The notes under the pieces are model-generated. The model ran no database searches and was not told the origin of the DNA. It saw nothing but the letters and a program-made list of their open reading frames with translations. A DNA stretch of 64,000 nt, taken from Magnetospirillum sp. (lineage in GTDB: Bacteria > Pseudomonadota > Alphaproteobacteria > CACIAM-22H2). The stretch is taken from assembly GCA_027532905.1 (NCBI GenBank), contig JAPZUA010000001.1, positions 147,565-211,564 on the forward strand, in the 5' to 3' direction. Below are positions 30,677-55,715 of the stretch, piece by piece (the stretch's first letter is position 1; each line of letters begins with the position of its first letter). A program made the position numbers and the translations under genes.

Positions 30677-30696
30677 AGCACTAATATATTAGTGCT
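30677..30696. promoter_or_regulatory. perfect 18-20 bp palindrome aGCACTAATATATTAGTGCt in the gntR-udh divergent promoter
   Basis: Exact reverse-complement symmetry verified base by base. Centred in an 80-bp divergent intergenic region. Confidence 0.7.
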
Positions 30697-30722
30697 TTGA
30701 AGCGAACCGCTTCCCCGCTAAA

Positions 30723-31559: not shown

Positions 31560-31563
31560 CGCC

Positions 31564-32835
31564 ATGAATCGCTCCAATCCGCGCATCGCCGCCGTCCGCA
31601 CCACGCCGATCGCCTTTCGCGATCCCCCGCTCCTCAACGTGGCCGGCGTGCACGAGGCTTTTGCCTTGCGCAGCATCATCGAGGTCGAAACCGAAGACGG
31701 CCGCATCGGCCTCGGCGAGAGCTACGGCGATCTCGAAACGCTCGCCAACCTCGCCAAGATCGGCCCAATGCTCGTGGGCCTCGATCCCTACGACCTCAAC
31801 GGGCTTGCGAGCCGCAGCTACCAAGCGGTGACGGGCCAGGAATTCGCGGGCCAGACCTATCCGGCCGCCGGCGACAAAGCGCTGGCGAGTGCGACCGCCG
31901 CCTTCGAAGTGGCGTTCCTCGATCTGCAGGGCCAGATCGCGGGCTTGCCGCTCTATGCGATCCTCGGCGGCAAGGTGCGCAGCCACGTGCCCTTCAGCGC
32001 CTATCTCTTCTACAAATTCAAGCAGCACAAGGACAATCCCGGCTACCCCGCCGACGATTGGGGCGAGGCGATCGACCATGCCCAGATCGTGGCGCAGGCC
32101 AAGCGCATGGTGCTTGAATGCGGCTTCGGTTCGATCAAGCTCAAAGCCGGCGTGTTCGAACCCGATTTCGAAATCGAATCCCTGCGTGCATTGCGCAAGG
32201 CCTTCCCCGACCATCCGCTGCGCATCGATCCCAATGGCGGCTGGTCGGTCGCGACGACCAAGCGCGTGATGCCGCAGCTCGACGGTTTGCTCGAATATCT
32301 CGAGGACCCGACCGGTACGCTCGAAGAAATGGGCGAGGTCGCGACCTTCGCCAAAATGCCGCTTGCGACGAACATGGTCACGATCGCCTTCGGCCATATC
32401 CCGAAATCGGTGCGACTCAATTCCGTGCAGATCGTGCTGAGCGACCACCATTACTGGGGCGGCCTGCGCGCGACCCAGAATCTGGCGCAGATCGGCCGCG
32501 TGTTCGGGCTTGGCATCTCGATGCATTCGAACTCGCATCTCGGAATCAGCTTGGCGGCGATGACGCATGTGGGAGCGACGATCCCGAACCTCGCCTATGC
32601 CTGCGACACGCACTATCCCTGGCAGGTCGAAGAGGTGATCGACGGCGGCAAGCTGAAGTTCGAGGGCGGCAGCCTGGCGCCGCCGCAGGGCCACGGCCTC
32701 GGCGTGCGCCTCGACCGCACCGCCCTTGCCACGCTGCATCGCCAGTACCAGACCTGCGGCATTCGCAAGCGCGACGACGCCAAAGAGATGCGCAAATACC
32801 GGCCGGACTGGAGCTCGGCGCGGCCGCGCTTCTAG
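31564..32835 (+). CDS. gudD: glucarate dehydratase (enolase superfamily)
   Basis: GudD-like features (KLKAGVFEPDFEIESLRAL, DPNGGW, 423 aa). Confidence 0.75.
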   Translation: MNRSNPRIAAVRTTPIAFRDPPLLNVAGVHEAFALRSIIEVETEDGRIGLGESYGDLETLANLAKIGPMLVGLDPYDLNGLASRSYQAVTGQEFAGQTYPAAGDKALASATAAFEVAFLDLQGQIAGLPLYAILGGKVRSHVPFSAYLFYKFKQHKDNPGYPADDWGEAIDHAQIVAQAKRMVLECGFGSIKLKAGVFEPDFEIESLRALRKAFPDHPLRIDPNGGWSVATTKRVMPQLDGLLEYLEDPTGTLEEMGEVATFAKMPLATNMVTIAFGHIPKSVRLNSVQIVLSDHHYWGGLRATQNLAQIGRVFGLGISMHSNSHLGISLAAMTHVGATIPNLAYACDTHYPWQVEEVIDGGKLKFEGGSLAPPQGHGLGVRLDRTALATLHRQYQTCGIRKRDDAKEMRKYRPDWSSARPRF

Positions 32836-32837
32836 GC

Positions 32838-33404
32838 TTAGACCGCGAAGAAGACCGTTTCGCCTTCGCCTTGCAGGCGGATATCGAACCGCCACTGGCC
32901 GGACGCTTCTTGCGTTGCGATCAATGTCGAGCGCCGCTCGGCCGGCACTAACGCGAGCACCGGGTCGGTTGCGTTGGCGGCTTCGCCTGCAAAATAGACG
33001 CGTGTATAAAGCCGGTTCAGCAATCCGCGCCCGAGGACGGAAACGGCGATGTGCGGGGCGCTTGCACCTGCCGCACCCGGCCTTACGGTCTGCAACCGGA
33101 AGACGCCGCCCGCATCCGTGGCCACGCGTGCGAACCCTCGGAACGGCGCATTGGCGGGCAGCCCCGCATCCGCCCCCGCATAGCGCCCGGCCGCATCGGC
33201 CTGCCAGAATTCGAGCATTGCATCGCCGACGGGCGCGCCATCGCCGTCCAACACCGCGCCGACGATTTCGATCGCGGCTCCTGCCCCTGCTATCGCCGCA
33301 TCGACGGCGGCTTGGTAGGGATAGCCCGCCGGCGTCAGGCAATAATGGAAAAACGGTCCCACCGTCTGCGACGGCGTGATGCCCAACGTTTTGCGCTCAA
33401 CCAT
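32838..33404 (-). CDS. pcaG: protocatechuate 3,4-dioxygenase alpha subunit
   Basis: ITPSQTVGPFF... and RFDIRLQGEGETVFFAV C-terminus, as in Pseudomonas putida PcaG. Confidence 0.9.
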   Translation of the reverse strand: MVERKTLGITPSQTVGPFFHYCLTPAGYPYQAAVDAAIAGAGAAIEIVGAVLDGDGAPVGDAMLEFWQADAAGRYAGADAGLPANAPFRGFARVATDAGGVFRLQTVRPGAAGASAPHIAVSVLGRGLLNRLYTRVYFAGEAANATDPVLALVPAERRSTLIATQEASGQWRFDIRLQGEGETVFFAV

Positions 33405-34110
33405 GCGAACCACTTTCCATCGGCGTGGCCGCACGGCCGCGCAGCACGATGTCCCACACATAGCCGAGCGCCCATTCGGGCATCGTCGTGTCGATGTCGA
33501 AGCGCGCCACCATGCGGGCGCGCGCGGCGGCATCGGGCACCGAACCCATGATCGGATCGAGTGCGTGCAGCGGATCGCCGGGGAAATACATCTGCGTCAC
33601 CAGCCGCTGCAGAAACGAGCGCCCGAACAGCGAAAAATGGATGTGCGCGGGCCGCCAAGCATTGGCGTGGTTGCGCCACGGATAGGCCCCCGGGCGGATC
33701 GTGGTGAAGCGATAGCGCCCTTGCGCATCGGTCGCCACGCGCCCCGCCCCGTAGAAATGCGGATCGAGCGGGGCCGGATGCTGGTCGACCGCATGGATGT
33801 AGCGGCCCGCCGCATTGGCCTGCCAGATCTCGACGAGCGTGTCGGGCACAGGCCTGCCGTCTTCGTCGAGCACGCGGCCCGACACGACGATGCGCTCGCC
33901 TTGCGCCTCTTTGCCGTCGTCGGTCTTCGTAAGATCGTCGTCGCCGGGGCGGCTCGCATCGTGCCCGAGCATGGGCCCCGACAATTCGGAAGCCCCCGCC
34001 TGGATCGCGATCGGCGGCAGCAAGGGTGCGCGCTTCTGCGTGCTGCGATAGCCCGGCGACAGCGACGGCGCATGCGCTGCCAAACTCGCCACGGGATAGA
34101 TGTCGGTCAT
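33397..34110 (-). CDS. pcaH: protocatechuate 3,4-dioxygenase beta subunit
   Basis: TLVEIWQANAAGRYIH...TIRPGAYPWRNHANAWRPAHIHFSLFG. Confidence 0.9.
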   Translation of the reverse strand: MTDIYPVASLAAHAPSLSPGYRSTQKRAPLLPPIAIQAGASELSGPMLGHDASRPGDDDLTKTDDGKEAQGERIVVSGRVLDEDGRPVPDTLVEIWQANAAGRYIHAVDQHPAPLDPHFYGAGRVATDAQGRYRFTTIRPGAYPWRNHANAWRPAHIHFSLFGRSFLQRLVTQMYFPGDPLHALDPIMGSVPDAAARARMVARFDIDTTMPEWALGYVWDIVLRGRAATPMESGSHG

Positions 34111-34156
34111 GTCGTCTCCCCCCACTCTGTCCCAGCACTTGGCGTGCCGCTTCAGA

Positions 34157-34209
34157 TACGCGACAACAGGCTACAATCGGCGACAGGCGTTGACTATAGG
34201 CGACATCGG
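34157..34209. promoter_or_regulatory. three direct repeats (G)GCGACA spaced 20 bp apart upstream of pcaHG
   Basis: acGCGACAacagg / tcGGCGACAggcg / taGGCGACAtcgg at 34157, 34177 and 34197, i.e. a two-helical-turn periodicity. Confidence 0.45.
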
Positions 34210-37570: not shown

Positions 37571-39105
<1,535 letters not shown>

Positions 39106-39109
<4 letters not shown>

Positions 39110-42457: not shown

Positions 42458-43666
42458 CTATTCGGGCGGGCGCAGGCTGCGGACCTCGGCGTCCGGCGGC
42501 AAATAATCGGCCCCGTCCGCGTAGCGCCAATCGGTCATGACGCCCTTGCCGTTGCGAAGGCCGATGCGGCCCACATAGGCACCCATCGTCGATTGATGGT
42601 CGAGCGGCCGGTAGACGATGCGCCCGAACGGCGTGCTGTGCGACAAACCCTTCATCGCGTCGACGATTTTTTCGGGCTCGAGCGAGCCCGCTTTGCGGAT
42701 CGCCTCGGCCGCACCGATCACGGCCGCATAACCAACGACCGAACCGAGGCGCGGATAGTCGCGGAACTTCGCCTGATAGGCCGCCAAAAACCGGTCGTGC
42801 TCGGGCGTTTTGATGTCCTGCCACGGATAGCCGGTCACGTACCAACCGACGGGCGCTTCGTCGAGCAGCGGGTCGAGATATTCGGGCTCGCCCGCCAGCA
42901 GGTTGAAGACCTCGACATTGCGGAACAAGCCGCGCGTGGTGCCCTCGCGCACGAAGCGCGACAAATCGGGCCCGAACAGCGACGAGAAAATCGCCTCTGG
43001 CCGGGCAGCCTGCAAGGCGGCCGCGACCGGACCCGCTTCGATGCGGCCCAGCGGCGTTGCCTGTTCGGCAACGAACTCGATATTCGGCTGGCGCGCCTGC
43101 ATGAGCTTCTTGAACGCAGCCGTCGCCGACTGGCCGTATTCGTAGTTCGGATAGACGATGGCCCAGCGGCGCTTGGCCACGCGCACGGCATCGGGGACAA
43201 GCATCGCGGTCTGCATGTAGGTCGAAGCGCGCAGACGGAACGTGTAGCGGTTGCCCTGCTCCCACACAATCTTGTCGGAAAGCGGCTCGGACGCCAAGAA
43301 CGGCACTTTGCGTTCCTTGGCAAAACTCGACACGGCAAGTCCCACGTTCGACGCGAACGTGCCCATCAGCATCGACACGCGCTCGCGCGCCAAAAGCTCT
43401 TCGGCCACGCGCACCGCGTCGCCGGGCTGGCCGTTGTCGTCGCGCACCACGATCTCGATCGGCCGGCCCAGAGCGCCGCCGCTTGCGTTGATCTCGTCGA
43501 CCGCGAGATCCATGCCCTTTTTGTAGGGCTCGAGGAAGGCCGCGAAGACTTTGTACGAGTTGAGCTCGCCGATGCGAATCGGCTCGCGCGCTTGTGCCAT
43601 CGCACGGGGCGCGGCCAGGGCTGCAGCGGCAGCTCCACCGATTTTCAGCACATGCCTGCGATCCAT
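42458..43666 (-). CDS. Leu/Ile/Val-binding protein family SBP (Tat/Sec signal)
   Basis: MDRRHVLKIGGAAAAALAAPRAMA signal and a periplasmic-binding-protein type I fold. AAGGAG RBS. Confidence 0.75.
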   Translation of the reverse strand: MDRRHVLKIGGAAAAALAAPRAMAQAREPIRIGELNSYKVFAAFLEPYKKGMDLAVDEINASGGALGRPIEIVVRDDNGQPGDAVRVAEELLARERVSMLMGTFASNVGLAVSSFAKERKVPFLASEPLSDKIVWEQGNRYTFRLRASTYMQTAMLVPDAVRVAKRRWAIVYPNYEYGQSATAAFKKLMQARQPNIEFVAEQATPLGRIEAGPVAAALQAARPEAIFSSLFGPDLSRFVREGTTRGLFRNVEVFNLLAGEPEYLDPLLDEAPVGWYVTGYPWQDIKTPEHDRFLAAYQAKFRDYPRLGSVVGYAAVIGAAEAIRKAGSLEPEKIVDAMKGLSHSTPFGRIVYRPLDHQSTMGAYVGRIGLRNGKGVMTDWRYADGADYLPPDAEVRSLRPPE

Positions 43667-43733
43667 CGCGTCGTCTCCTTCGGCGGAAATCATTGCGGCC
43701 GATTATGGCCCGATTATGGCTCAGATCGCCGCG

Positions 43734-45191
43734 CTATTCGACGACTGCTTCGGCTTCCATTTCAACCGCATAAGGGCCGACCAAGCGCCCGATCTCGAGC
43801 AGCGTGTTGGCCGGGCGGACGGCACCGAACACGCGCCCGTGCACGCGCGACACTGCCTCCCAGTCGTCGGCATCGGCCAGATACACGCGCGTGCGCACCA
43901 CGTCGTCGATCGAAGCCCCAAGCGCTTCGAGCGACGCTGCGATCTTGTCGAGAATATAGACGGCCTGGCCTTCGGCATCGCCGGGGCACACGGCCATGCC
44001 CGTTCCGTGCGTGGCGGTCGTCCCGCTCACGAACACACGCTGGCCCTCGCGCACCGCGCGCGAATAGCCCGCAATGGGTTCCCACTGGCTGCCGCTGTCC
44101 ACGCGCCAGCGCGCGGTGCGCCCCGGAACGGGCTGGGCTTCGTAGATTTTCGGCAACGAGTCGAGATGGTGGCTCAAATCGCCCGAGGCGGTCAGGAACG
44201 GCGGCTTGCGATATTCGTCGCCGCAATCGCCCGGAATGGGCGACGCGGTCGCCAACGCCGCATCGAGCCTCGCGCGGTCTTCTGCGTCGAACGAAAACGC
44301 AAACGTGCCGAGATTGGCCGTGCGATGCTCGCGCTCGCCGGGCCGCGACCCAACGATGGCAGCCGCCACGGCTTCATGGTCGAGCACCCAGCGCGTGGCC
44401 ACATTGGCGACCGACACGCTGTGGCGCTTGGCGATTGCGGATGCGGCGCCAAGGATTGTCTGCAGCACCGCCCAGCCGCCCGCCGCATCGATAAAGCGTT
44501 TGTATTTGGACTTGCTCCAGTCCGGAATGTCGACGGGCTCGGGCTGGCCGACCCAACGGTCGGTCAAGAAGCCGCCCGCAAGCGTGCCGTAAGCGAGCAG
44601 CTTGACGCCGTGCGCGTTGCAGAACGCGCTCATGCGGCCCGCCGCACGCCGGTCGAGCAGCGAGAACGACACTTGGTTCGTCGCGATCGGAATGCCGTGC
44701 TTGACCAAGAGCCGCAGATGGTCGGTATCGAAATTGGTGAGGCCGAGGGCGCCGATGCGCCCCTCGCCTACCATCTTCGCCATCTCTGCAAGCGCATCGA
44801 GATAGGCTGGATGGCGATACTGCCACCAATGGAACTGCATGAGATCGATGCGCGCGAGCCCCAGACGCTCGAAGCTGCGCCCCACGCCTTCGCGCACGAT
44901 CTCAGCATTCATCGGCCCCGGCGGCGGGCACCATTTGGTGAAAGCGCGCGCTTTGCCGCGCCACGGCCCTGCGAGCAGCCGACCGACGATGATCTCCGCA
45001 CTGCCGTAATGGTCGGCCATGTCGAACGCATCGAACCCGGCCGCCGCGTACTCTGCAAGAGATGCGGCGGCCACATCGGGATCGAGCGCCCCGCGATCGC
45101 GCTCCATGTCGGCGACCTGCCACAGGCCGGTCAGCAGGCGCGGGATCGCGAGCCCGGGTGCGAGTTCGATGCGCGGCGGAACAGCCGCCAT
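43734..45191 (-). CDS. aldo/keto reductase fused to C-terminal RidA (YjgF/endoribonuclease L-PSP) domain
   Basis: AKR core (paralogous to 46997-48046) continues without a stop into a RidA-like domain of about 130 aa. Confidence 0.65.
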   Translation of the reverse strand: MAAVPPRIELAPGLAIPRLLTGLWQVADMERDRGALDPDVAAASLAEYAAAGFDAFDMADHYGSAEIIVGRLLAGPWRGKARAFTKWCPPPGPMNAEIVREGVGRSFERLGLARIDLMQFHWWQYRHPAYLDALAEMAKMVGEGRIGALGLTNFDTDHLRLLVKHGIPIATNQVSFSLLDRRAAGRMSAFCNAHGVKLLAYGTLAGGFLTDRWVGQPEPVDIPDWSKSKYKRFIDAAGGWAVLQTILGAASAIAKRHSVSVANVATRWVLDHEAVAAAIVGSRPGEREHRTANLGTFAFSFDAEDRARLDAALATASPIPGDCGDEYRKPPFLTASGDLSHHLDSLPKIYEAQPVPGRTARWRVDSGSQWEPIAGYSRAVREGQRVFVSGTTATHGTGMAVCPGDAEGQAVYILDKIAASLEALGASIDDVVRTRVYLADADDWEAVSRVHGRVFGAVRPANTLLEIGRLVGPYAVEMEAEAVVE

Positions 45192-45216
45192 TGCGAAGAC
45201 CCTTGTGCGGCCCGCG

Positions 45217-46491
45217 TCAGCGCGGCGGCAGACGGCGCTGCACGTCCTGCACTTCGTTCGTCGACATTTCGCCGACCGTGACGATGTTGCCGTCCGTGAT
45301 GCGCCACTTGCGGAACGGACCCGTGATGTCGCCGTTCGCATCGAACGTGACCGGGCCGATCACGCCGACATACGAGATGCGCTTGCCTTCGCGCAGCAGC
45401 TGCAGGCCGCGGCGGAACTCGGCCGCACCGGCATGGATCGGCTCGCCGCCCGGGCCCGTCACTTCGCGGATCGCGTCGCGGATGGCGGCGGATTCCGCAC
45501 GGCCGGCTTTGGCGATGGCAAGGCCCAGAATGGCGGCGGCATCGTAAGCGCGGTCGGCGGCCGGCGCGTTCGCGTCGAACCCGCCCGACATGGCAGGGTA
45601 CGCGGTCGCGAAATACTCGGTCGACGGCGTGCGCACCGTGCCCGACGAGGTGCCGAACGCGTTGTTGAGGAAGCGCGGGCCAACGTCGCGGATGAAATCG
45701 GCACTGTTCATGCCGTCGTTGAGCAGGAAGGTCTGCGCCCCGCCCTGCTGCAGCCACGTGCGCGCGATCGTCGTGCCGTCGCCGGGATACGAGACGAGAT
45801 AGAGGGCGGGCGGATTGCCGCGCATCGCAGCCGTCACTTCGGGCGCGTAGGAGGGCTGGCTCGGATTGTAGGGCACGGTGTTCGTGATCTTGCCGCCGAG
45901 GGCTTCGAAGGCGCGGCGGAATTCGTTCACCATGTTGACGCCGAAATCGTTGTTCACATGGATGATGGCGAGTTCCTTGAGGCCCTGGTCCATCGCGTAT
46001 TTCGCGGCGGCCGTTCCCTGCAGCGCGTCCGACGTGATCGTTCGGAAAAACACGCCCTTGGACGTGCCCTCGGCCGACAGGCGCGTGAGCGTGGGCGAGG
46101 ACGATGCGGGCGAAATCTGCACGATGCCGGCAGGTGCGGTCACCGACGTCAGCACCGGGATCGACACTGACGAGATGATGCCGCCGAGGATTGCGGGCAC
46201 GCGGCGAAGATCGACCAACTGGCGCGCCTGGTCGACTGCGACCGAACCCTGGCTCTGCGCATCGCGCAGATCGATCGCCAGACGGCAGCCGGCAACGCCG
46301 CCTGCCGTGTTGAGATCGTTGAACGCAAGTTCAGCCGATTTGGATGCCGCCTGGCCGAAACGCCCGGCCGGCCCCGTCAGCGACACGACCATGCCGATCG
46401 TGTGGGTGCAGCCCTGCGCCAGAACGGGTGCGGGCTGGAATTGAGCAGCAGCGGCAACGGCAGCAACGGCGATCAGCGAAGCAAAGCGCAC
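45217..46491 (-). CDS. ABC substrate-binding protein, branched-chain amino acid/amide (LivK) family
   Basis: Signal peptide RFASLIAVAAVAAAAQ. The GTG start at 46491 is inferred; the ORF is open up to 46569. Confidence 0.6.
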   Translation of the reverse strand: MRFASLIAVAAVAAAAQFQPAPVLAQGCTHTIGMVVSLTGPAGRFGQAASKSAELAFNDLNTAGGVAGCRLAIDLRDAQSQGSVAVDQARQLVDLRRVPAILGGIISSVSIPVLTSVTAPAGIVQISPASSSPTLTRLSAEGTSKGVFFRTITSDALQGTAAAKYAMDQGLKELAIIHVNNDFGVNMVNEFRRAFEALGGKITNTVPYNPSQPSYAPEVTAAMRGNPPALYLVSYPGDGTTIARTWLQQGGAQTFLLNDGMNSADFIRDVGPRFLNNAFGTSSGTVRTPSTEYFATAYPAMSGGFDANAPAADRAYDAAAILGLAIAKAGRAESAAIRDAIREVTGPGGEPIHAGAAEFRRGLQLLREGKRISYVGVIGPVTFDANGDITGPFRKWRITDGNIVTVGEMSTNEVQDVQRRLPPR

Positions 46492-46583
46492 GGCTTGGAT
46501 CCTTTCGGAGGGGGGCGGTCGGGAGACATTAATTGCGCACAGTTTGGTAGGGGAATTCCGATTTGGCAAGCGGGTTCAGGCGC

Positions 46584-47000
46584 TCAACCCGCAATCCATG
46601 TCTCGTGCACGGCGAGCCAGCGCAGGCCATTGGGCGCAGCTTGGACCGGGCGGAACACGGCACTCGCGCGGCGCTGCAACGGACCGGGGCGGCCGGTCTG
46701 GATTTCGTCGTAGCCGACGCAGATGAAATCCGCCCCGTGCGCCAATGGTACAGCGGCTTCGATCGCGATGCCAAAACCGGCGCCGAAGGCGGCACGGTTT
46801 GCGTTCAGCATTGCGAGCACACCCGCGCGGTCGAGGCGTTTGCCGGCGGGGCCGACCATCGTGAATTCAGGCGCGAACGCCGATTCGAAACGCGCGAAGA
46901 GTTCGGGGCCGCCACCCAGCCCCATCCACGCCGCAAAAGCCGCGTGCAGTTCTTCGATCTCGCGCAAAGCGGCGGCGAAAGAAGGAACCGCGTCGGTCAT
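46584..47000 (-). CDS. SnoaL/NTF2-like small protein (DUF4440-like)
   Basis: 138 aa. ATGA overlap with the upstream AKR stop. Confidence 0.45.
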   Translation of the reverse strand: MTDAVPSFAAALREIEELHAAFAAWMGLGGGPELFARFESAFAPEFTMVGPAGKRLDRAGVLAMLNANRAAFGAGFGIAIEAAVPLAHGADFICVGYDEIQTGRPGPLQRRASAVFRPVQAAPNGLRWLAVHETWIAG

Positions 47001-48046
47001 GGCTTGTTCAGATTGTATTTCATGATGCGGCCGTGGCGGCCCTCCTTGTCGCGCTCGAGCGTGTAGGTGTCGCCGAGCGGCCCTCGACGGCGGGCGAGCA
47101 CCGCGTCGATCCGGGCACGGTCTTGCGCGTCGAGCGCAAAGGCGAACATACCCAGATTGTCGGCCAGGTGCGCTGCATAGCGGGCACCGACGATGATGCC
47201 GGCCACGTGCGGGCGGTCGAGCGTCCAGCGACCGGCCACGCACGAGAGCGACACGCCGTGCTTGTCGCCGATCGCCTGGCAGACCGCGAGCAGTTCCTGG
47301 AACAGATCCCAGCCGCCGAAATCGTCGATCACGAGCTTGTATTTGACGAGGCTGCGATTGTGCGAAAGATCGCTCGGCTCCGGTTTGCCGAGCCAAGCTT
47401 TCGAGAGAAAACCGCCCGCAAGCGTGCCGTAGCACAGGAGCTTCATGCCCGTGCGGGCGCACAGGCCCGCAAGGGCGGTCTCGGGGCGCGCGTCGAGAAG
47501 CGAATACTGCACTTGCATCGAGGCGAGCTTCACGCCCGCATCGAACATCGCTTGCGTGTGCGGCGTGTCGAAATTGGTCGCCCCGACCTGGTCGATCTTG
47601 CCTTCGCGCGCGAGATCGGCCAGCACGCAGGCGATCTCGGCATGGCGCGGTACTGCGTAGTTCCACCAATGGAACTGCACGAGATCGAGCCGCGCGGCAC
47701 CCAAGCGCTTGAGCGACCGCTCCACGATCGCGCGCGCATAAGCGGCGTCGCAGGTCGCAAGATCGTCCCAATCGGGCACAAATTTTGTGTGGACTTTGAG
47801 GCCTGCGAGGGCGGCGGCCCCTCGGGCTTGCAGCAGGCGGCGGCGGAATTCGCCGATGAGTTCTTCCACGCCCGTATAGATGTCCGCACAGTCGAAGACC
47901 GTTACGCCCGCATCGACGAACGCGAACATGTCGTCGACCGCGCGCGCCGCATCGACCGGGCCGTGGCCGCCCGCAAGCTGCCAGCCGCCGCGCAGCAGGC
48001 GCGAAATTTCGTAGCCTGGGGCGAGGCTGAAGCGTTCGACCGTCAT
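46997..48046 (-). CDS. aldo/keto reductase (paralog of the AKR-RidA gene)
   Basis: MTVERFSLAPGYEISRLLRGGWQLAGGHG..., ATNFDTPH, YGTLAGGFL. Confidence 0.75.
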   Translation of the reverse strand: MTVERFSLAPGYEISRLLRGGWQLAGGHGPVDAARAVDDMFAFVDAGVTVFDCADIYTGVEELIGEFRRRLLQARGAAALAGLKVHTKFVPDWDDLATCDAAYARAIVERSLKRLGAARLDLVQFHWWNYAVPRHAEIACVLADLAREGKIDQVGATNFDTPHTQAMFDAGVKLASMQVQYSLLDARPETALAGLCARTGMKLLCYGTLAGGFLSKAWLGKPEPSDLSHNRSLVKYKLVIDDFGGWDLFQELLAVCQAIGDKHGVSLSCVAGRWTLDRPHVAGIIVGARYAAHLADNLGMFAFALDAQDRARIDAVLARRRGPLGDTYTLERDKEGRHGRIMKYNLNKP

Positions 48047-48378
48047 GGCCGTTTCACGGCCGTCGTTGCGGCATGGCTGAAGCGGCGCTTCTCGCCCCGC
48101 TTGATGCGAAAACGCGTCGTGCAGTTGGGATCGGGGCAGGCGACTTCCGCGTCGGTCGTCATCCAATCGTTGGGATGCGTGGGGCGTTGTTTGGCCGCCA
48201 GCAGCGGCAGCAAGGCGCCCAGCGAATAGATCGAAAAACCCTGGCCCGGCGGCAGATGCAGCATCTCGCCGCGCAGCTCGAAATGATCGCCCGGTTTGGC
48301 GCCGCAATAGACGGCCCCGCCCTCGGGCGCCACGACCTCGACGCGCAGATCGTAAAGCTCGAAATTGTCGTCGCTCAA
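48043..48378 (-). CDS. small conserved Cys-containing protein (TIGR04076-like?)
   Basis: DDNFELYDLRVEV...CGAKPGDHFEL...THPNDWMTTDAEVACPDPNC. TTG start at 48378 with GGGGA RBS. An alternative ATG at 48441 would leave only 41 bp to the divergent livG. Confidence 0.4.
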   Translation of the reverse strand: MSDDNFELYDLRVEVVAPEGGAVYCGAKPGDHFELRGEMLHLPPGQGFSIYSLGALLPLLAAKQRPTHPNDWMTTDAEVACPDPNCTTRFRIKRGEKRRFSHAATTAVKRP

Positions 48379-48482
48379 ACGCCGATCCCCATGTTGCGAT
48401 GGCTTGCGGATGCGCGTTCCTTCATGCTCTATTTTCGCCATGCGCGCAACGCCCCCACATAAGCGCGCACATCTCGGGATCC

Positions 48483-49241
48483 ATGCTGCAAATACGCGAC
48501 CTTGCCAAACGCTTCGGCGGCAACCGCGCCGTCGACGGCGTCTCGTTCGACGTGCCCAAGGGTGCCATCGCCGGCCTCATCGGCCCGAACGGGGCCGGCA
48601 AAACCACGTTGTTCAACTGCGTGGCCGGGCTCTATCGGCCCGATGCCGGCGCGATAACGCTCGACGGCAACCGCATCGACGGCAAGCGGCCGTCGCTTGT
48701 GCATGCGGCAGGGCTAGGGCGCACCTTCCAGATCCCGCGCCCGTTTCCGGCCATGAGCGTGCTCGAAAACGTGCTGGTGGGGGTACCCGGCCAGAGCGGC
48801 GAGCGTTTCTGGGCCAACTGGTTTGCACCCGCACGCGTCGCTTCCGACGAAGCCAAGGCCCGCGAGACCGCGCGCGCCTGGATCGATTTCGTGGGCCTGA
48901 GCGCCCTCGAACAGGCCCCTGCCCGCGTGCTCTCGGGCGGGCAGCGCAAATTGCTGGAACTGGCGCGTGCGATGGTCGCCGACCCGCGCTTGGTGCTGCT
49001 CGACGAGCCGGCCGCCGGCGTCAATCCCGCCTTGCTCGAGAAGATCATCGACCGCATCGCCGAGATCAACCGGCGCGGGACGAGCTTCCTGATCGTCGAA
49101 CACAATATGGATATGGTCATGCGCCTGTGCCATCCGATCGCGGTGATGGCGCAGGGCAAGCTCATCGCGTTCGGCGACGCGGATTCCGTGCGCCGCAATC
49201 CGACCGTGGTCGAAGCCTATCTCGGCGGTGCCGTCGCATGA
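48483..49241 (+). CDS. livG: branched-chain amino acid ABC transporter ATP-binding protein
   Basis: Second Liv system, translationally coupled through ATGA overlaps. Confidence 0.8.
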   Translation: MLQIRDLAKRFGGNRAVDGVSFDVPKGAIAGLIGPNGAGKTTLFNCVAGLYRPDAGAITLDGNRIDGKRPSLVHAAGLGRTFQIPRPFPAMSVLENVLVGVPGQSGERFWANWFAPARVASDEAKARETARAWIDFVGLSALEQAPARVLSGGQRKLLELARAMVADPRLVLLDEPAAGVNPALLEKIIDRIAEINRRGTSFLIVEHNMDMVMRLCHPIAVMAQGKLIAFGDADSVRRNPTVVEAYLGGAVA

Positions 49242-49966
49242 GCGTCGCCCTCGAAATCTCCGACCTCGAAGCGGGCTACGAGCCGGGCCTTGCGATCGTG
49301 CGGGGTGCTTCGCTTGGCGTTGCGGCGGGCGAGATCGTGGCGTTGCTCGGACCCAATGGGGCGGGCAAATCCACGCTCGCCAAAGCGGTCGCGGGCCTCG
49401 TACCGATTTTTTCGGGCAGCGTGAGGCTTGGCGGTGCGGAGATCGCGGGCACGGCGGCGCATTTGTTGGCGCGTGCGGGCTTGGGCTTCGTGCCGCAGAC
49501 GGAAAACGTGTTCGCACCGCTCACGGTCGCCGAAAATCTCGAACTTGCAGCGGCCGTGGCGCACGTGAAAGCCAAGCAGCGCTTGCCCGAGCTTTACGCG
49601 CTGTTTCCGGATCTCGCCAAAGCGCGCCGCATCGATGCCGGGCGGCTCTCGGGCGGCCAGCGTCAGATGCTGGCGATGGCGCGCGCCCTCGTGCCCAACC
49701 CGCGCGTGCTGATCCTCGACGAGCCGTCGGCGGGCCTGTCGCCGAAGCTCGTCGATCACGCCTTTGCCAAACTCGTCGAAATCGCGGCATCGGGTGTGGC
49801 CGTGCTGCTCGTCGAGCAGAACGTCAAAGCCGCACTTGCGATCGCAGCACGCGGCGCGGTGCTGGTCGAAGGCCGCGTGCATGTCGATGCCCCCGCGCGC
49901 GACCTGCAAGTGCCGGGCGTGCTCGAGCGTTTGTTCTTCCCGCATGCCGAGGTGGGCGCACCATGA
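49238..49966 (+). CDS. livF: branched-chain amino acid ABC transporter ATP-binding protein
   Basis: Second Liv system, translationally coupled through ATGA overlaps. Confidence 0.8.
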   Translation: MSVALEISDLEAGYEPGLAIVRGASLGVAAGEIVALLGPNGAGKSTLAKAVAGLVPIFSGSVRLGGAEIAGTAAHLLARAGLGFVPQTENVFAPLTVAENLELAAAVAHVKAKQRLPELYALFPDLAKARRIDAGRLSGGQRQMLAMARALVPNPRVLILDEPSAGLSPKLVDHAFAKLVEIAASGVAVLLVEQNVKAALAIAARGAVLVEGRVHVDAPARDLQVPGVLERLFFPHAEVGAP

Positions 49967-50892
49967 TCCTGCAGATCCTCGCAGACGGCCTCATCGTCGG
50001 CTCGACGATTGCGCTCGGCGCCATCGGTCTCACCATGACCTATTCGCTGCTGCGCTTCGCCAACTTCGCGCATGGCGAATTCATCGCGTGGGGGGCGTAT
50101 CTGGTTTTGACGTTCCTCGGCTTTTTCCTCGCACTCGGCGGCGGCGGGGCGATGGCGCCATTGGGGCCGTTCTCGTTCGGCTGGCAATTGCTGGCGGCAC
50201 TCGTTGCGGGGGCGATCGCGACGGCACTCCTCGCCCTCCTGCTCGACTGGCTGCTGTTCGACCGGTTGTCGACGCAGGGCAGCGCCATCGTGCTAACGAT
50301 CGCGAGCTTCGGTGCCGCGCTGGCGCTGCGGAACTTTCTGCAGTTCGTCTACGGCTCGCTGCCCGCCTATTACACGCGCGAACTGCAGATCGCGATCCAT
50401 ATCGTGCCGCGCGATGTGGGCGGCGGCTTGCGCGCGACGCCCGACCAACTCTTCGTGCTGGGACTTGCCCTCGTGCTGGTCGTGGCCTTGCACCTGTTCT
50501 TGCAGCGCACGACGGCCGGGCGCGCGATGCGCGCGGTTGCGCACAATCCCGCTTTGGCGCGCGTGACCGGCATAGACGTTGCGAGCGTGGTGCGCTGGAC
50601 CTGGATTCTGGGTGCGATCCTTGCGGCGGTGGCCGGCACGTTTGCGGGCCTTGTAGGCCAGCTACGCCCGCAGATCGGTTTCGATCTGCTGCTGCCTTTG
50701 TTCGCGGCCGCCATTCTGGGCGGGATCGGCAGCGTGCCGGGTGCCGTGATCGGCGGGCTCATTGTGGGTCTCGCCGAAAGTGCCGCCGTTCCGCTGATCG
50801 GGGCCGAATACCGAGCAGCGGCCGCGTTCGGCGTGCTGATCGCGATTTTGCTCGTACGCCCGCAAGGTCTGTTTGCGGAGCGTGCGAAATGA
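49963..50892 (+). CDS. livH: branched-chain amino acid ABC permease
   Basis: Second Liv system, translationally coupled through ATGA overlaps. Confidence 0.8.
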   Translation: MILQILADGLIVGSTIALGAIGLTMTYSLLRFANFAHGEFIAWGAYLVLTFLGFFLALGGGGAMAPLGPFSFGWQLLAALVAGAIATALLALLLDWLLFDRLSTQGSAIVLTIASFGAALALRNFLQFVYGSLPAYYTRELQIAIHIVPRDVGGGLRATPDQLFVLGLALVLVVALHLFLQRTTAGRAMRAVAHNPALARVTGIDVASVVRWTWILGAILAAVAGTFAGLVGQLRPQIGFDLLLPLFAAAILGGIGSVPGAVIGGLIVGLAESAAVPLIGAEYRAAAAFGVLIAILLVRPQGLFAERAK

Positions 50893-51839
50893 GCGAGCTA
50901 CTGCCGGTCCTGTCCTACGCGACGTTCTTTTTCGTCTTCGCGTCGATCTTCGCGACGATGGCGCTCGGGCTCAATCTGCAATGGGGCTATACGGGGCTGT
51001 TCAATGTCGGCGTGGCGGGCTTCGTGGCGGTCGGTGCCTATGCCTCGGCCCTGCTGACCACGCCGCCCGACGCGGCACCGGGTGCCGTGCGCGTCGTCGG
51101 CCTCGGCCTGCCGATCGTGGTGGGCTGGATCGGCGGCACGGCCGCTGCCGGTCTCGTCGCTGCCGCCGTCGGATTTGCAGCTTTGCGACTGCGTCACGAC
51201 TATCTGGCGATCGCGACGTTCGGCATCGCCGTGGTGATCCAGCTCGTCGCCCTCAATGCGCAGAAATTGACTGGCGGGCCGTTCGGCATCCAGTTCATCC
51301 CGAAACCTTTCGACGCCGAACTCGACGGCTCGCTTGCCTTCAACGCGCTCTATCTCGTGCTGACGCTGGCGGCTCTCGGGGCCGTCTATGCGGGCCTCCA
51401 GCGTTTGGCCGCAAGCCCGTGGGGCCGCGTTTTGCGCGCAATCCGCGAGGATGAAACGGCCGCCGAAGCGCTCGGCAAACGCGCCTTCGCGTTCCGCCTG
51501 CAATCCTTCGCGATCGGCGGTGCGATCATGGGCTTCGGAGGTGCTCTCTATGCGCATTTTGTGGGCTACATCGCCCCCGAAGATTTTCTGCCGATCCTCA
51601 CCTTCCAAATCTGGACCATGCTGATCGTCGGCGGGGCCGGCAGCAATCGCGGGGCCATCGCAGGCGCCATCGTCGTGTGGGCGATCTGGACGATCGCGGG
51701 CAACGGCTTGCGCGAACTGATCCCGCCGGCCGACCAGGCGCGCGCGGCCTCGCTGCAGATCGTGCTGGTCGGCGTGCTGCTCGCGGCGATGCTGTTGTGG
51801 CGCCCGCACGGTCTCTTGGGGCCGCGCCCGTCCAAGTGA
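50889..51839 (+). CDS. livM: branched-chain amino acid ABC permease
   Basis: Second Liv system, translationally coupled through ATGA overlaps. Confidence 0.8.
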   Translation: MSELLPVLSYATFFFVFASIFATMALGLNLQWGYTGLFNVGVAGFVAVGAYASALLTTPPDAAPGAVRVVGLGLPIVVGWIGGTAAAGLVAAAVGFAALRLRHDYLAIATFGIAVVIQLVALNAQKLTGGPFGIQFIPKPFDAELDGSLAFNALYLVLTLAALGAVYAGLQRLAASPWGRVLRAIREDETAAEALGKRAFAFRLQSFAIGGAIMGFGGALYAHFVGYIAPEDFLPILTFQIWTMLIVGGAGSNRGAIAGAIVVWAIWTIAGNGLRELIPPADQARAASLQIVLVGVLLAAMLLWRPHGLLGPRPSK

Positions 51840-51915: not shown

Positions 51916-52926
51916 ATGATCGCAGCGCGCACGCTCGGCAAATCGGGGATTGCCGTCTCGGAGATCGGTTTCGGCGGCGCGCCGCTCGGCGATCTCTTCG
52001 CCGTGCTCGACGAAAGCGCGGCGGTCGCCACCGTCGAAGCTTCCCTCGATGCCGGCGTGACCCTGCTCGACACATCGCCCCTCTACGGCCACGGCCTGTC
52101 CGAACATCGCATCGGGGCTGCCTTGCGCCGACGGCCACACGTGCGGTCCGTGCTCTGCACGAAGGTGGGCCGTGTCGCCGATCCGTTTTTGCCGCGCGCG
52201 GGCGAGACCGATTTCGTCGGCGGATTGCCGCATCGGCTGCGCTTCGACTATTCCCACGACGGCGCGCTGCGCTCGATCGAGCAGTCGCTGCTGCGCTTAG
52301 GCACATCGCGCCTCGACGTCGTGCTGATCCACGACGTCGATGTGTGGACGCACGGGGCCGCCGCGATCGACGCGCGCTTCGAAGAAGCGGTCGCGGGCGC
52401 CTATCGCGCCTTGCGCCGCTTGCGCGACGAAAAAACCATCGGCGCGCTCGGTGTGGGCGTCAACGAAGCCGACATGTGCATGCGGTTCGCCGAGCGCTGC
52501 GACATCGACTGCGTGCTGCTGGCCGGGCGCTATTCGCTGCTCGAGCAGCCGGCCGCCGAAACGTTCCTGCCGCTTGCACAAGCGCGCAATATCGGCGTGA
52601 TGCTGGGCGGGGTATTCAATTCCGGCATCCTCGCGACAGGCGCTGTCGCAGGTGCCAAGTACAATTATAAACCCGCCCCGCCTGAGATCCGCGCGAAGGT
52701 CGAGAAGATCGAAGCGGTCTGCCGCCGCCACGGCGTCAAGCTCGCCGATGCCGCGCTGCGTTTTGCCCTCGCCCATCCGGTCGTCGCCAGCGTCGTGCTG
52801 GGGGCGGTGACGCCGACTGAAATCGCCGCCCAGCAGGCGAGCCTTGCCGCCACGATTCCGAGGGCCTTGTGGGCCGATCTCGTTGCCCAAGGCTTGCTCG
52901 ACGCAAATCTGCCGGTGCCCACATGA
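51916..52926 (+). CDS. aldo/keto reductase, D-threo-aldose/L-fucose 1-dehydrogenase-like
   Basis: AKR fold; context with the lactonase and FucU. Confidence 0.65.
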   Translation: MIAARTLGKSGIAVSEIGFGGAPLGDLFAVLDESAAVATVEASLDAGVTLLDTSPLYGHGLSEHRIGAALRRRPHVRSVLCTKVGRVADPFLPRAGETDFVGGLPHRLRFDYSHDGALRSIEQSLLRLGTSRLDVVLIHDVDVWTHGAAAIDARFEEAVAGAYRALRRLRDEKTIGALGVGVNEADMCMRFAERCDIDCVLLAGRYSLLEQPAAETFLPLAQARNIGVMLGGVFNSGILATGAVAGAKYNYKPAPPEIRAKVEKIEAVCRRHGVKLADAALRFALAHPVVASVVLGAVTPTEIAAQQASLAATIPRALWADLVAQGLLDANLPVPT

Positions 52927-53759
52927 CGCATCGGCACATCGACGCGCACCAGCATTATTGGCGCGTCGCGCGCGGCGACTATGGCTGGCTCACGCCCGCA
53001 TCGGGGCTGCTCTATCGCGACTACATGCCGCCGGATCTGGCCCCCCTGCTTGCCGCGCACGCAATCGGCGAGACCATTCTCGTGCAGGCGGCCCCCAGTG
53101 TGGCCGAAACGAATTTTCTGCTCGAAATCGCGCGCGGTACGCCGAGCGTTGCGGGCGTCGTCGGCTGGGTCGATTTCGCCGACGGCGACGCGCCTGCGAC
53201 CATCGCTTCACTCGCGCAAAATCGGCTGCTGGTCGGGCTTCGGCCGATGGTGCAGGACATCGCCGACGACGATTGGCTGCTCGACCCGCGCCTCGACGCG
53301 GCGTTTGCGGCACTCGCCGCACACGGGCTCGTGTTCGACGCGCTCGTTCTGCCGCGCCATCTGCGGCAATTGCTCGTGCGCGCCCGCCGCCATCCCAACG
53401 TAACGTTCGTGATCGACCATGCCGCCAAGCCGTTCATCCGGGCTGGCACGCTCGATCCGTGGCGCCGGGAACTCGCCGAACTCGCTTTGCTTCCGAACAC
53501 CACCTGCAAACTCTCGGGCCTCGCCACGGAAGCCGCCGAAAACTGGACCGTTGCCGACCTCGCCCCCTATGCGGCGCACGTGCTCGCCTCGTTCGGGACC
53601 GAACGCACGCTCTGGGGGAGCGATTGGCCGGTCGTCGAGAAAGCCGGCGGCTATGCGCGCTGGTTCGACACGGCTCAAACGCTTGCCGGTTTGCATCCCG
53701 GCGTGTTCGGCGACAATGCGGCACGCCTCTATCTTGCGACGCGCGGAAGGAACGCCTGA
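52923..53759 (+). CDS. amidohydrolase-2 family lactonase (L-fucono-1,5-lactonase-like)
   Basis: PF04909-type fold (HIDAHQHYW ... FVIDHAAKP). Confidence 0.65.
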   Translation: MTHRHIDAHQHYWRVARGDYGWLTPASGLLYRDYMPPDLAPLLAAHAIGETILVQAAPSVAETNFLLEIARGTPSVAGVVGWVDFADGDAPATIASLAQNRLLVGLRPMVQDIADDDWLLDPRLDAAFAALAAHGLVFDALVLPRHLRQLLVRARRHPNVTFVIDHAAKPFIRAGTLDPWRRELAELALLPNTTCKLSGLATEAAENWTVADLAPYAAHVLASFGTERTLWGSDWPVVEKAGGYARWFDTAQTLAGLHPGVFGDNAARLYLATRGRNA

Positions 53760-54218: not shown

Positions 54219-55715
54219 TCAGCCGAAGACCGGCCCGTGCGGGCGCAAGCGTAAGCCTTTGCGCAAGCGCTTCCACGCGAGTGCGGCCGGATCGGCCGGA
54301 TTGGGGCCCGGTGCGGCGACAACCAGCACCTCTTCGGCGATCGGCTGGAAATCGGCGCGGAAATGCACCGAGCTCTTGACCGCGACGATCTTTTCGCGGA
54401 TCGGCTCGATGCCGACATGGCGGAACATTTCCTGGTCGGCCGTCTGCACCTTCTTGCTCGCGAGCACCACGCGAACGCCATTCGCCTCGAGTACTGCCAT
54501 CGGCCCCAGCTGCATGCGGCTGCCGCCGTAGAACGGCCCCGTGCACATGAAAGCACCGTCCCCGGTCGCCAGCACCTTGAACGGGCCGACGACCGGCTCC
54601 ACCCCCGGCCAGCCGAACAAGGCGCCCAACCGAAACTCGGCACTGTTGCCGATGCCCACTTGATGCGCCTGGCGTGCGGCGGCGGGATCGATCAGCATGC
54701 CCAACACCGCGCCTTGCGGGCGCAGGCGCAGCATGGCCGCAAGCAGCCCGGTCGTGTCGCCGTTGCCGCCCGCACCGGGATTGTCTTGCGTATCGGCGAG
54801 CACGACCGGCTTGCCGTTGCGCCCGCCACGTGCGGCCGCGCGTGCGACCGCGTCTGCAGGCGAATAGAGTTCCGCCACATAGTCGCGCTCGGCCTCGCAC
54901 ACAGCGGCCGCGAGTTCGGCAACGGCGGCCTCGATTGCGGCAGCATTGTGCGCAAAGCCGAACACGGACGGCGCGCAGTCGCGAATGTCGGCGGCCGGAA
55001 AGCCCGTGCAGTAGGACAAAACGGCACCGCTGCGCGTCTCGATCTCGGCCAAGCGCCGATAGAGTCCGGCACTTGGCTCGATCAGCGAGCATTGTGCCGT
55101 GAGCGGGATCATGAACGGGATCTGGCGGAAAGCGCCAGCAAGCCGCTCGCCCGTGGCAAGCAGGCGTGCGACGAGCGCGAAGGCGCGCGCGCCCGTCTCG
55201 GCCATATCGACATGCGGATAGGTGCGGTAGGCAACGCACGCATCCACGATATCGAACATCGCGCGCGACACGTTGGCGTGCAGATCGAGCGACACGACGA
55301 TGGGCACGTTCCGCCCGACGACCGCGCGCACGCGGCGCACGATTTCGCCCTCGCCGTCTTCGAGCGAGTCGGTGACCATCGCCCCGTGCAGATCGAGATA
55401 GACCGCATCGACCGGCAAAGCCTTGGCAAGATCGGCGCACATCGCGTCGACGACTTCCGCGAAGATGTCGTCGGCGACTTCCGCGGAGGGCGTGGCATTG
55501 GCACAGATCAGCGGGGCGAGCCTGTGGCCCGCGGCCGTGGCGGCCGCGATGAAACCCGCGATCGGCACGTTCATGCCCACAAATGCCGCCGGAATGGCAG
55601 CCCCCCGCACCATCGACGGCCAGCCGCCGCCATGCAGAAAGGCCGCGCGATCGGCTTTGGAAGGCGCAAACGTGTTGGTTTCGTGCTGGAAGGTTCCGAC
55701 CGCGATCGTCGCCAT
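54219..55715 (-). CDS. M81 family metallopeptidase (microcystinase MlrC-like)
   Basis: MATIAVGTFQHETNTF N-terminus and about 500 aa. Confidence 0.7.
   Translation of the reverse strand: MATIAVGTFQHETNTFAPSKADRAAFLHGGGWPSMVRGAAIPAAFVGMNVPIAGFIAAATAAGHRLAPLICANATPSAEVADDIFAEVVDAMCADLAKALPVDAVYLDLHGAMVTDSLEDGEGEIVRRVRAVVGRNVPIVVSLDLHANVSRAMFDIVDACVAYRTYPHVDMAETGARAFALVARLLATGERLAGAFRQIPFMIPLTAQCSLIEPSAGLYRRLAEIETRSGAVLSYCTGFPAADIRDCAPSVFGFAHNAAAIEAAVAELAAAVCEAERDYVAELYSPADAVARAAARGGRNGKPVVLADTQDNPGAGGNGDTTGLLAAMLRLRPQGAVLGMLIDPAAARQAHQVGIGNSAEFRLGALFGWPGVEPVVGPFKVLATGDGAFMCTGPFYGGSRMQLGPMAVLEANGVRVVLASKKVQTADQEMFRHVGIEPIREKIVAVKSSVHFRADFQPIAEEVLVVAAPGPNPADPAALAWKRLRKGLRLRPHGPVFG

Follow-up and report, generated by a model that had tools for sequence, protein, structure and literature searches.

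What might a bacterium do with two paralogous aldo/keto reductases (AKRs), one of them fused to a Rid (YjgF/L-PSP) domain, encoded beside an ATP-binding cassette (ABC) importer of the amino-acid type? We address this question for a 64,000-nucleotide stretch of a Magnetospirillum sp. genome (contig JAPZUA010000001.1 of assembly GCA_027532905.1), referred to below as the window. Five genes on its minus strand encode, from high to low coordinates, a small protein of the TIGR04076 family (g1), a stand-alone AKR (g2, hereafter AKR1), an NTF2/SnoaL-like protein (g3), a Peripla_BP_6 binding protein (g4, hereafter SBP1) and the AKR-Rid fusion (g5); the transporter genes livGFHM diverge from g1. An initial annotation, made from the DNA sequence, had described these five genes, and all of them lie where it placed them. 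It took them for an operon serving the uptake and detoxifying reduction of an unstable nitrogen compound. Our own reading, which we hold with about even confidence, is that the locus is one copy of a widespread and uncharacterised uptake-and-redox module, consisting of a HAAT importer, a TIGR04076 protein and two paralogous AKRs, one of them Rid-fused.

A conserved gene module

We searched the proteins of the window against the best 80 genome loci encoding a g5 relative, many of which lie on incomplete contigs. Beside g5 we found livGFHM in 63-65 of the 80 loci, SBP1 in 62, TIGR04076 in 59 and AKR1 in 57; AKR1 adjoins g1 in 57 of the 80. The genes occur in at least six orders, spread over the Alphaproteobacteria, Betaproteobacteria and Rokubacteria. 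The order seen in the window has livMHFG running one way and g1 g2 (g3) g4 g5 the other. The Rhizobiaceae-type order (24-25 loci) has g4 g2 g1 with a GntR/FCD regulator on one side and livGFHM-g5 on the other, and is a self-contained two-operon unit with its own regulator. A third order is collinear, livGFHM g4 g1 g2 g5. That these genes stay together however often they are rearranged argues strongly for one functional module, and the initial annotation was right to link the five genes with the divergent livGFHM. Its word 'operon' is better read as 'module', since g5 in other genomes is transcribed with livGFHM and not always as part of the g1 operon. An annotated example, on the Neorhizobium plasmid pNCHU2750a, carries generic labels only.

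The public labels (livGFHMK and 'aldo/keto reductase') would suit a plainer explanation, namely an ordinary operon of the Liv/Bra type for the uptake of branched-chain or general amino acids that happens to lie beside unrelated housekeeping or stress reductases, and all parts of the transporter do match Liv-type families. We give this explanation a very slim chance. A chance adjacency would not survive so many gene orders in two proteobacterial classes and the Rokubacteria, TIGR04076 and both AKRs track the transporter, and none of the Liv and Urt equivalog models comes near its cutoff.

A few loci carry g5 alone (L002, L003, L016, L042, L051 and L072). They showed no consistent partner, their neighbours being unrelated as judged by reading the translations without a check against a family library.

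The AKR-Rid fusion

In g5 an AKR domain (PF00248) and a Rid domain (PF01042) share one frame. Both Pfam domains are present in all of the best 120 matches to the g5 protein (457-619 residues, 66-94% identity), and the 23-residue linker between them, GDCGDEYRKPPFLTASGDLSHHL, is nearly invariant across 121 family members, all 121 of which keep a single open reading frame (ORF). We considered a sequencing error as the origin of the fusion and ruled it out, because the single ORF and the linker are conserved in all members; the AKR-RidA-type fusion of the initial annotation is genuine. A search for the same fusion in other genomes, as proposed there, found that at least 569 species genomes (one genome per species) encode a relative of g5. 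The hosts include Rhizobium, Mesorhizobium, Microvirga, Kaistia, Lichenihabitans, Methylocapsa, Rubrivivax, Polaromonas, Rhodoferax and a Rokubacteria metagenome-assembled genome (MAG); the nearest relative, at 93% identity, is in a Telmatospirillum MAG (locus L001). The fusion is both real and ancient.

An AlphaFold 2 model of g5 built from 48 sequences reached a mean predicted local distance difference test (pLDDT) score of 88.9 and a predicted TM-score (pTM) of 0.90, with lower confidence (~60-80) in the linker. A Foldseek search with this model returned AKRs only, covering half of it, and no PDB entry that spans both domains. Variants of 617-619 residues with the architecture AKR-Rid-Rid occur in Betaproteobacterial and Rokubacterial lineages (P0015, P0081 and P0091; loci L007, L036, L077 and L082-L089). 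Literature searches combining AKR-RidA fusion, keto reductase with YjgF and LivK, or kynureninase with AKR and RidA yielded nothing relevant, and the supplements of the Rid family paper (PMC4433059) contain no AKR fusion. The fusion of an AKR to an arginine-less Rid domain, as described below, is thus uncharacterised and is held in the databases as 'aldo/keto reductase'.

The Rid domain lacks the RidA arginine

Membership of the YjgF/L-PSP fold is clear. PF01042 matches at 83 bits (cutoff, 27), and RidA structures are matched at E-values of 1e-9 to 1e-20; the best match in the PDB is Mycobacterium tuberculosis Rv2704 (3i7t), with an E-value of ~2e-20. Curated models score below their cutoffs: TIGR00004, 61 versus 106 bits; RutC, 44 versus 169; PRK11401, 30 versus 222.

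In alignments to PH0854 and 1xrg, Asn462 of g5 (codon 43806-43808) stands where RidA has Arg105. The same pairing is obtained with Escherichia coli RidA, in a sequence that has R105, Y17 and E120 at the expected positions. All 121 family members have this Asn, and in the AKR-Rid-Rid proteins both Rid domains carry Asn at the Arg position (signature R-x-x-N-T). The equivalents of RidA Tyr17 and Glu120 are retained in the g5 family, and Arg459, three residues before Asn462, is invariant. The signature of the g5 domain, RPxNT, is shared by Rv2704 as RPVT. Compared with RidA (E. coli 1qu9, TdcF) and Rv2704, the g5 domain thus has the same fold and family and the Tyr17 and Glu120 equivalents; it differs in the residue at the Arg105 position (Asn in g5, Thr in Rv2704), in being fused to an AKR, and in being duplicated in some lineages.

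An arginine at this position separates RidA and Rid1-3, which hydrolyse imines, from Rid4-7 (Niehaus et al. 2015, PMC4433059). Mutation of the RidA arginine nearly abolishes activity, and Salmonella enterica Rid7 is devoid of imine hydrolase activity (PMC4433059). Rid4 and Rid7 have Trp at the position while Rid5 and Rid6 are variable; the same authors call the role of Rid4-7 'mysterious', the Arg-less Rid proteins being without known function (PMC4433059). Yersinia Y3550, which is also Arg-less, is not a functional RidA deaminase (PMC7221256). The g5 Rid domain does not have the active-site Arg that defines the RidA subfamily, and by the criterion of Niehaus et al. it would belong with the arginine-less subfamilies; judged by the published descriptions of these, its Asn appears to fit Rid5/6 and not Rid4/7.

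Because an invariant Asn replaces the essential Arg105, canonical enamine/imine deamination is not expected of g5. This bears directly on the mechanism put forward in the initial annotation, in which the imported nitrogen compound, or a product of an AKR or of a pyridoxal phosphate (PLP) enzyme, forms an enamine or imine (2-aminoacrylate, for example) that the fused Rid domain hydrolyses in the manner of RidA, protecting the cell. The Rid fold itself speaks for such quenching, as do the retained Tyr17 and Glu120 equivalents and the invariant Arg459 so close to Asn462. A PLP enzyme (the kynureninase paralogue described below) shares operons with the module in some lineages, and stand-alone Rid genes adjoin it in others. 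We nevertheless consider the mechanism unlikely, given that Asn occupies the Arg105 position in every family member and in the second Rid domain of the AKR-Rid-Rid proteins, that the Arg-less Rid proteins which have been tested lacked imine hydrolase or RidA activity (S. enterica Rid7, PMC4433059; Y3550, PMC7221256), and that the NCBIfam models for RidA and RutC score far below their cutoffs.

The stand-alone Rid genes beside the module occur in several genomes (L090:8085-8507, L092:20641-21036 and L039:13449-13916). The one in L039 has Met, not Arg, at the apparent position of the RidA arginine, as read by eye without an alignment.

Two paralogous aldo/keto reductases

AKR1 shares 43% identity with the AKR part of g5 over 334 residues (E-value, 2e-72), so that the description of the two as paralogues was correct. 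Both match the AKR superfamily over the whole (α/β)8 barrel, at 209 and 190 bits (cutoff, 24) and over profile positions 2-290 of 291. The catalytic tetrad of g5 consists of D57, Y62, K86 and H121, of which the first three are invariant and the last is found in 118 of 121 family members; the same tetrad motifs are visible in AKR1 in the pairwise alignment with g5.

The nearest AKRs of known structure are AKR18A1 (7utf), Tas (1lqa), DepB (8hwn), MtmW, AKR11B4 (3n2t) and YghZ (AKR14A1), none above 27% identity and the first three at 24-27%. Foldseek aligned the g5 model to AKR structures with a probability of 1.0 and target-normalised TM-scores of ~0.74-0.78. Membership of an AKR family requires about 40% identity in the AKR nomenclature, and g2 and g5 would therefore fall outside the families of the solved structures with which we compared them (AKR11, AKR14, AKR18 and Tas, among others). 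They share with these bacterial enzymes the barrel and the Asp-Tyr-Lys-His tetrad; besides the low identity, they are set apart by distinctive C-terminal extensions, to which g5 adds the conserved linker and the Rid domain.

In NCBIfam, both AKRs are most similar to the methylglyoxal reductase YdjG and to other detoxifying AKRs. This similarity could be taken as a sign of generic carbonyl-stress detoxification, with the two enzymes acting as methylglyoxal or aldehyde reductases and not in catabolism or salvage. We find that scarcely credible: with a cutoff of 550 bits, the two enzymes reach only 57-64; a dedicated high-affinity importer with its binding protein makes little sense for an endogenous toxin; and the Rhizobiaceae version has a specific regulator.

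The window contains a third AKR gene (51916-52926, plus strand), the product of which is 23% identical to AKR1 and unrelated to the module. It starts 76 nucleotides after livM and overlaps an Amidohydro_2 gene by ATGA, the pair spanning 51916-53759 (plus strand) and being syntenic only in L001. The two genes resemble a sugar dehydrogenase and lactonase pair.

The binding protein and its transporter

The locus encodes a complete importer set of the HAAT type: two BPD_transp_2 permeases, two ABC ATPases, one of them with a BCA_ABC_TP_C tail, and a Peripla_BP_6 binding protein. The best structural relatives of SBP1 are amino-acid binders (3hut, 4n0q, 3td9 and Atu2422). When SBP1 is aligned to Atu2422, the equivalents of Ser79, Ala100 and Asp226 are kept and Thr102 is replaced by Ser; elsewhere in the pocket, Phe77 is replaced by Ile and Tyr150 by Phe. 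The anchor residues of SBP1 (S107, A129, S131 and D259) are conserved among 64 aligned orthologues. The corresponding residues of LivJ and Atu2422 hold the α-amino and carboxylate groups of the ligand, roles that were reportedly described by Planamente et al. in 2010 and Trakhanov et al. in 2005. An amino-acid-like ligand, as implied in the initial annotation, is plausible because SBP1 keeps these anchor residues.

SBP1 lies far below the equivalog cutoffs of known binding proteins (LivJ/K, 74 versus 477 bits; UrtA, 35 versus 493). The system as a whole has the five-component architecture, the families and the anchor residues of HAAT importers such as LIV-I (LivJ/KHMGF), Bra and the Agrobacterium tumefaciens system of Atu2422 (3ip5). 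It departs from them in its scores against the equivalog models, in the side-chain pocket residues and, in the arrangement found in the window, in having the binding-protein gene grouped with the enzymes and not with the permease genes.

The two small proteins

The g1 protein matches TIGR04076 at 61.3 bits (cutoff, 33) over model positions 2-89 of 91 and has no match in Pfam; its orthologues carry the same TIGR04076 name in public records. Homologues of g1 open with MSDDxFELYDL, so that translation probably starts at the TTG at 48378, giving 111 residues, rather than at the ATG at 48441. The three Cys of the protein are conserved in the family. The median identity of TIGR04076 orthologues, taken from 58 loci across classes, is 77.5%, compared with 58% for AKR1, 66% for g5 and 57-60% for the transporter. 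Conservation above that of all enzyme and transporter genes of the module hints at tight physical interactions. A sequence search of the PDB with g1 gave no match. Our literature searches on TIGR04076 found no relevant work, and the papers that name the family speculate only. The fold resembles the N-terminal domain of the XdhC/CoxI family (2we7) at 9% identity, which is a resemblance and not membership: the Rossmann-like C-terminal domain of that family is absent from g1, and the module includes no molybdoenzyme.

Taken alone, g3 scores below the Pfam cutoff for DUF4440 (21.3 versus 25.2). A profile of 11 g3 orthologues matches Pseudomonas aeruginosa PA1314 (1tp6) over its full length (E-value, 1.5e-21), with DUF4440 found in nine of the 11 members and SnoaL_2 in four; PA1314 is itself an uncharacterised NTF2-like protein. 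These matches place g3 in the NTF2-like/SnoaL-like superfamily. It lies beside g5 in only ~10 of the 80 loci and is therefore dispensable in most versions of the module.

A conserved protein of 164 residues (p164), without a match in Pfam or NCBIfam, is encoded in L007, L077, L082-L087 and L093-L106 (for example, L082:3172-3666), its gene always following that of the binding protein where the module is of the Betaproteobacterial or Rokubacterial version. We considered p164 as a divergent g3 and rejected the idea (hhalign probability, 0.3%).

Kynurenine and tryptophan genes beside the module

The bare core points to no downstream pathway, but genes of a recognisable one join the module in several lineages. 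Four Mesorhizobium-type loci continue after g5 with kynA (tryptophan 2,3-dioxygenase; 422 bits against a cutoff of 391) and kynU (268 against 246), and further on with a benzoate-CoA-ligase-family gene, a salicylyl/aminobenzoyl-CoA hydroxylase-type flavoprotein gene (1220 bits), and apparent acyl-CoA dehydrogenase and enoyl-CoA hydratase genes, the last two being read from translations without a check against a family library. In Burkholderiales and in a Rokubacteria MAG, the operons of the transporter, or those of TIGR04076 and AKR1, also include a paralogue of the kynureninase family, whose 226-227 bits fall slightly short of the cutoff, together with HyuA and HyuB; these two belong to the hydantoinase/caprolactamase-type family of ATP-dependent lactam hydrolases.

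We also ran the test in reverse, scanning metagenomes with the kynureninase paralogue. All 14 loci recovered at ≥65% identity carry module genes, the shortest contigs showing fewer of them, and six loci with distant kynureninases (27-33% identity) are without the module. One of the recovered loci has g1-g2-HyuA-HyuB-KynU-like on one strand and Abhydrolase_3-livGFHM-g4-p164-g5 on the other. Other recurrent neighbours are an HSL-type α/β hydrolase, a PF04199 cyclase, a protein of the indolepyruvate:ferredoxin-oxidoreductase family and a reductase of the ornithine-cyclodeaminase/mu-crystallin family. PF04199 is the family of bacterial kynurenine formamidase (KynB) and isatin hydrolase.

Kynurenine-type genes lie within 10 kb of the module in ~8-10 lineages. 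Since this pathway makes up well under 1% of a genome, chance is an unlikely cause, although our estimate is informal. The relation to the known bacterial kynurenine cluster (kynA, kynB and kynU) and the anthranilate/2-aminobenzoyl-CoA route is one of proximity: in some lineages those genes adjoin the module or sit inside it. The known pathway, unlike the module, needs no AKR, Rid, TIGR04076 or hydantoinase-like enzyme, and the window has no kyn genes.

A possible role for the module

The families and conserved anchor residues suggest that SBP1 would capture an amino-acid-like compound in the periplasm, which LivGFHM would import. Given the intact tetrads and the paralogy of the two enzymes, AKR1 and the AKR domain of g5 may then catalyse two carbonyl/alcohol conversions that depend on NAD(P)(H), either at two positions of the substrate or as an oxidise-then-reduce pair; the reactions could run in either direction. 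Rather than deaminating imines as RidA does, the Rid domain would more likely hold the enzyme together as a trimer, bind or tautomerise the AKR substrate or product at its non-carboxylate end, or do both. For AKR1, TIGR04076 could be an obligate partner with the role of a subunit, a chaperone or a ligand carrier, as its strict adjacency and very high conservation would suggest.

As to the substrate, the class that we favour is an amino acid of the kynurenine or oxindolylalanine type, derived from tryptophan and bearing a ketone, alcohol or lactam group, because kynurenine/anthranilate genes enclose or adjoin the module in several lineages; we propose it tentatively and regard it as possible but doubtful. 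Kynureninase has retro-aldol activity on γ-hydroxy analogues, and isatin is a classic AKR substrate, a substrate of the PF04199 isatin hydrolases and a route to anthranilate derivatives. Speculatively, a kynureninase-like enzyme might free alanine and isatin from dioxindolylalanine.

Whatever the compound, nutrient catabolism or salvage is more likely than the detoxifying role suggested in the initial annotation, because the module has its own high-affinity importer and, in Rhizobiaceae, a GntR/FCD regulator.

Several observations weigh against the module as we read it, or against its link to tryptophan. None of the components is closely related to a protein that has been characterised by experiment, the AKR structures that come nearest being those at 24-27% identity, and the co-transcription of g1-g5 is presumed from gene overlaps and short gaps only. 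The anchor positions differ in nine of the 64 aligned SBP1 orthologues, and the binding proteins of the kynurenine-linked Betaproteobacterial loci are only 37-41% identical to SBP1. The invariant Arg459 may be a relocated substrate-binding arginine. We found no kyn, hyu or related genes in the 64-kb window, and most Alphaproteobacterial loci show the bare core only. The tryptophan link is restricted to certain lineages and could reflect a shared downstream product and not the imported substrate.

Organisation of the locus and its surroundings

The region has a G+C content of ~66%, and GC bias at third codon positions, together with the context of start sites, served to pick out the real genes (Table 1). 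Of the several ATGA junctions claimed in the initial annotation, those at g1/g2 and g2/g3 are present, while g3/g4 and g4/g5 are separated by gaps of 92 and 25 nucleotides. The divergent livGFHM spans 48483-51839, with ATGA overlaps at all of its joints. We found no terminator-like site in any gap between g1 and g5, the number of such sites in the whole scan being no higher than in shuffled sequence; the promoter scan likewise gave nothing above the shuffled background, and an Rfam scan of 38.5-54.5 kb returned no RNA family.

Table 1. Genes, protein domains and the divergent intergenic region of the module locus, with the neighbouring second binding protein (positions in the window).
Feature	Coordinates	Strand	Description
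g1	48043..48441	-	132 aa; TIGR04076-family small protein; 3 Cys
g2 (AKR1)	46997..48046	-	349 aa; stand-alone aldo/keto reductase; PF00248, 209 bits
g3	46584..47000	-	138 aa; NTF2-like (DUF4440/SnoaL-like); optional module member
g4 (SBP1)	45217..46491	-	424 aa; GTG start; signal peptide; Peripla_BP_6, 156 bits
g5 (AKR-Rid fusion)	43734..45191	-	485 aa; one uninterrupted frame; PF00248 + PF01042
AKR domain of g5	44256..45137	-	aa 19-312; PF00248, 190 bits
Linker motif GDCGDEYRKPPFLTASGDLSHHL of g5	44163..44231	-	aa 321-343; between AKR barrel and Rid domain
Rid (YjgF/L-PSP) domain of g5	43740..44081	-	aa 371-484; PF01042, 83 bits
d1, LivG-type ATPase	48483..49241	+	ABC_tran and BCA_ABC_TP_C matches; syntenic in 65/80 loci
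d2, LivF-type ATPase	49238..49966	+	ABC_tran match; ATGA overlap with d1; syntenic in 64/80 loci
d3, LivH-type permease	49963..50892	+	BPD_transp_2 match; syntenic in 63/80 loci
d4, LivM-type permease	50889..51839	+	BPD_transp_2 match; syntenic in 65/80 loci
Divergent g1/livG intergenic region	48379..48482	.	104 bp if g1 starts at TTG 48378
SBP2	42458..43666	-	second binding protein; TAT signal

The spacer between g1 and livG presumably holds the promoters of both gene sets. It contains an inverted repeat, TGCGCGC-N15-GCGCGCA, at 48441-48469, which is partly kept in L001, and no match to the sigma-70 consensus. Microvirga-type loci have another conserved motif in the same spacer, TGTTGCG...TTTTGCGTCATGA...TGCAACAGGCA.

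The five genes of the initial annotation are all present, but the run does not end with them: four further genes in the same direction follow g5, making nine. They encode a second ABC system of the HAAT type (43666-39106, minus strand), which starts 67 nucleotides past g5 with SBP2 and continues with a fused LivH-LivM permease of 626 residues and two ATPases. This system is closest to the Urt urea/amide transporter models, yet falls below every cutoff. The g5/SBP2 spacer contains an 11-bp tandem direct repeat, GCCATAATCGG GCCATAATCGG, at 43700-43725, just upstream of a strong ribosome-binding site, GAAGGAGA; the repeat may serve the transporter genes downstream of it as an operator or as part of a promoter.

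All nine genes could form a functional unit here, g1-g5 and the Urt-like system (g6-g9) acting together on a urea- or amide-like compound. They share one strand, only 67 nucleotides without a terminator-like hairpin part g5 from SBP2, the components are most similar to Urt proteins, and the arrangement is kept in the Telmatospirillum locus L001. That locus, the nearest relative, is also the single one of the 80 in which g6-g9 accompany the module; SBP1 and SBP2 are only 24% identical, the Urt models are under their cutoffs, and the tandem repeat and strong ribosome-binding site fit a control region of the downstream genes' own. On balance we consider a nine-gene unit improbable.

The third AKR, the amidohydrolase and an aldehyde dehydrogenase likewise lie beside the module in one of the 80 loci, the 93% relative. 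The aldehyde dehydrogenase gene (37571-39109, plus strand; 512 residues) converges on the end of the Urt-like operon and is not conserved with the module; nor is a gene for an M81/MlrC-type metallopeptidase (54219-55700, minus strand; DUF1485 and MlrC_C). Further away, at 20705-34170, there is a dense catabolic stretch with three MR_MLE (enolase-superfamily) dehydratase-like genes, an RraA-like aldolase gene, an Opp-type ABC system with an SBP_bac_5 protein, a PF01370 NAD-dependent epimerase/dehydratase-family gene and a gene resembling the β subunit of protocatechuate 3,4-dioxygenase.

Significance of the module

An ABC importer with cytoplasmic oxidoreductases is ordinary for a catabolic locus, and every component belongs to a known superfamily. 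What is out of the ordinary is the fusion of an Arg-less Rid domain to an AKR, the strict coupling of TIGR04076 to an AKR, an AKR lineage far from the solved ones, and the tie to a kynurenine-type neighbourhood. Three protein groups of no known function, the Arg-less Rid proteins, TIGR04076 and this distant AKR lineage, meet in one conserved module that is carried by hundreds of soil, rhizosphere, lichen and freshwater bacteria. Natural gene fusions are strong pointers to function, and this one links carbonyl chemistry that depends on NAD(P)H with an Arg-less Rid domain. Through the dedicated binding protein, the substrate can be approached directly by experiment. For at least one lineage, the role of Rid4-7 becomes testable.

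The most far-reaching outcome would be a new route of catabolism or salvage whose substrate is an amino acid derived from tryptophan and bearing an oxo, hydroxy or lactam group. In such a route the Arg-less Rid domain would have a new AKR-coupled role in catalysis or ligand handling, and TIGR04076 would be a new small obligate partner of the two AKRs; we think it rather unlikely that all of this will hold. If the kynurenine/oxindole link is true, the module would represent a new branch of bacterial tryptophan catabolism; if it is not, the module would be a well-defined orphan catabolic module, without conceptual surprise. Should the new route prove correct, it would open a first way into the function of both the Arg-less Rid proteins and the TIGR04076 family.

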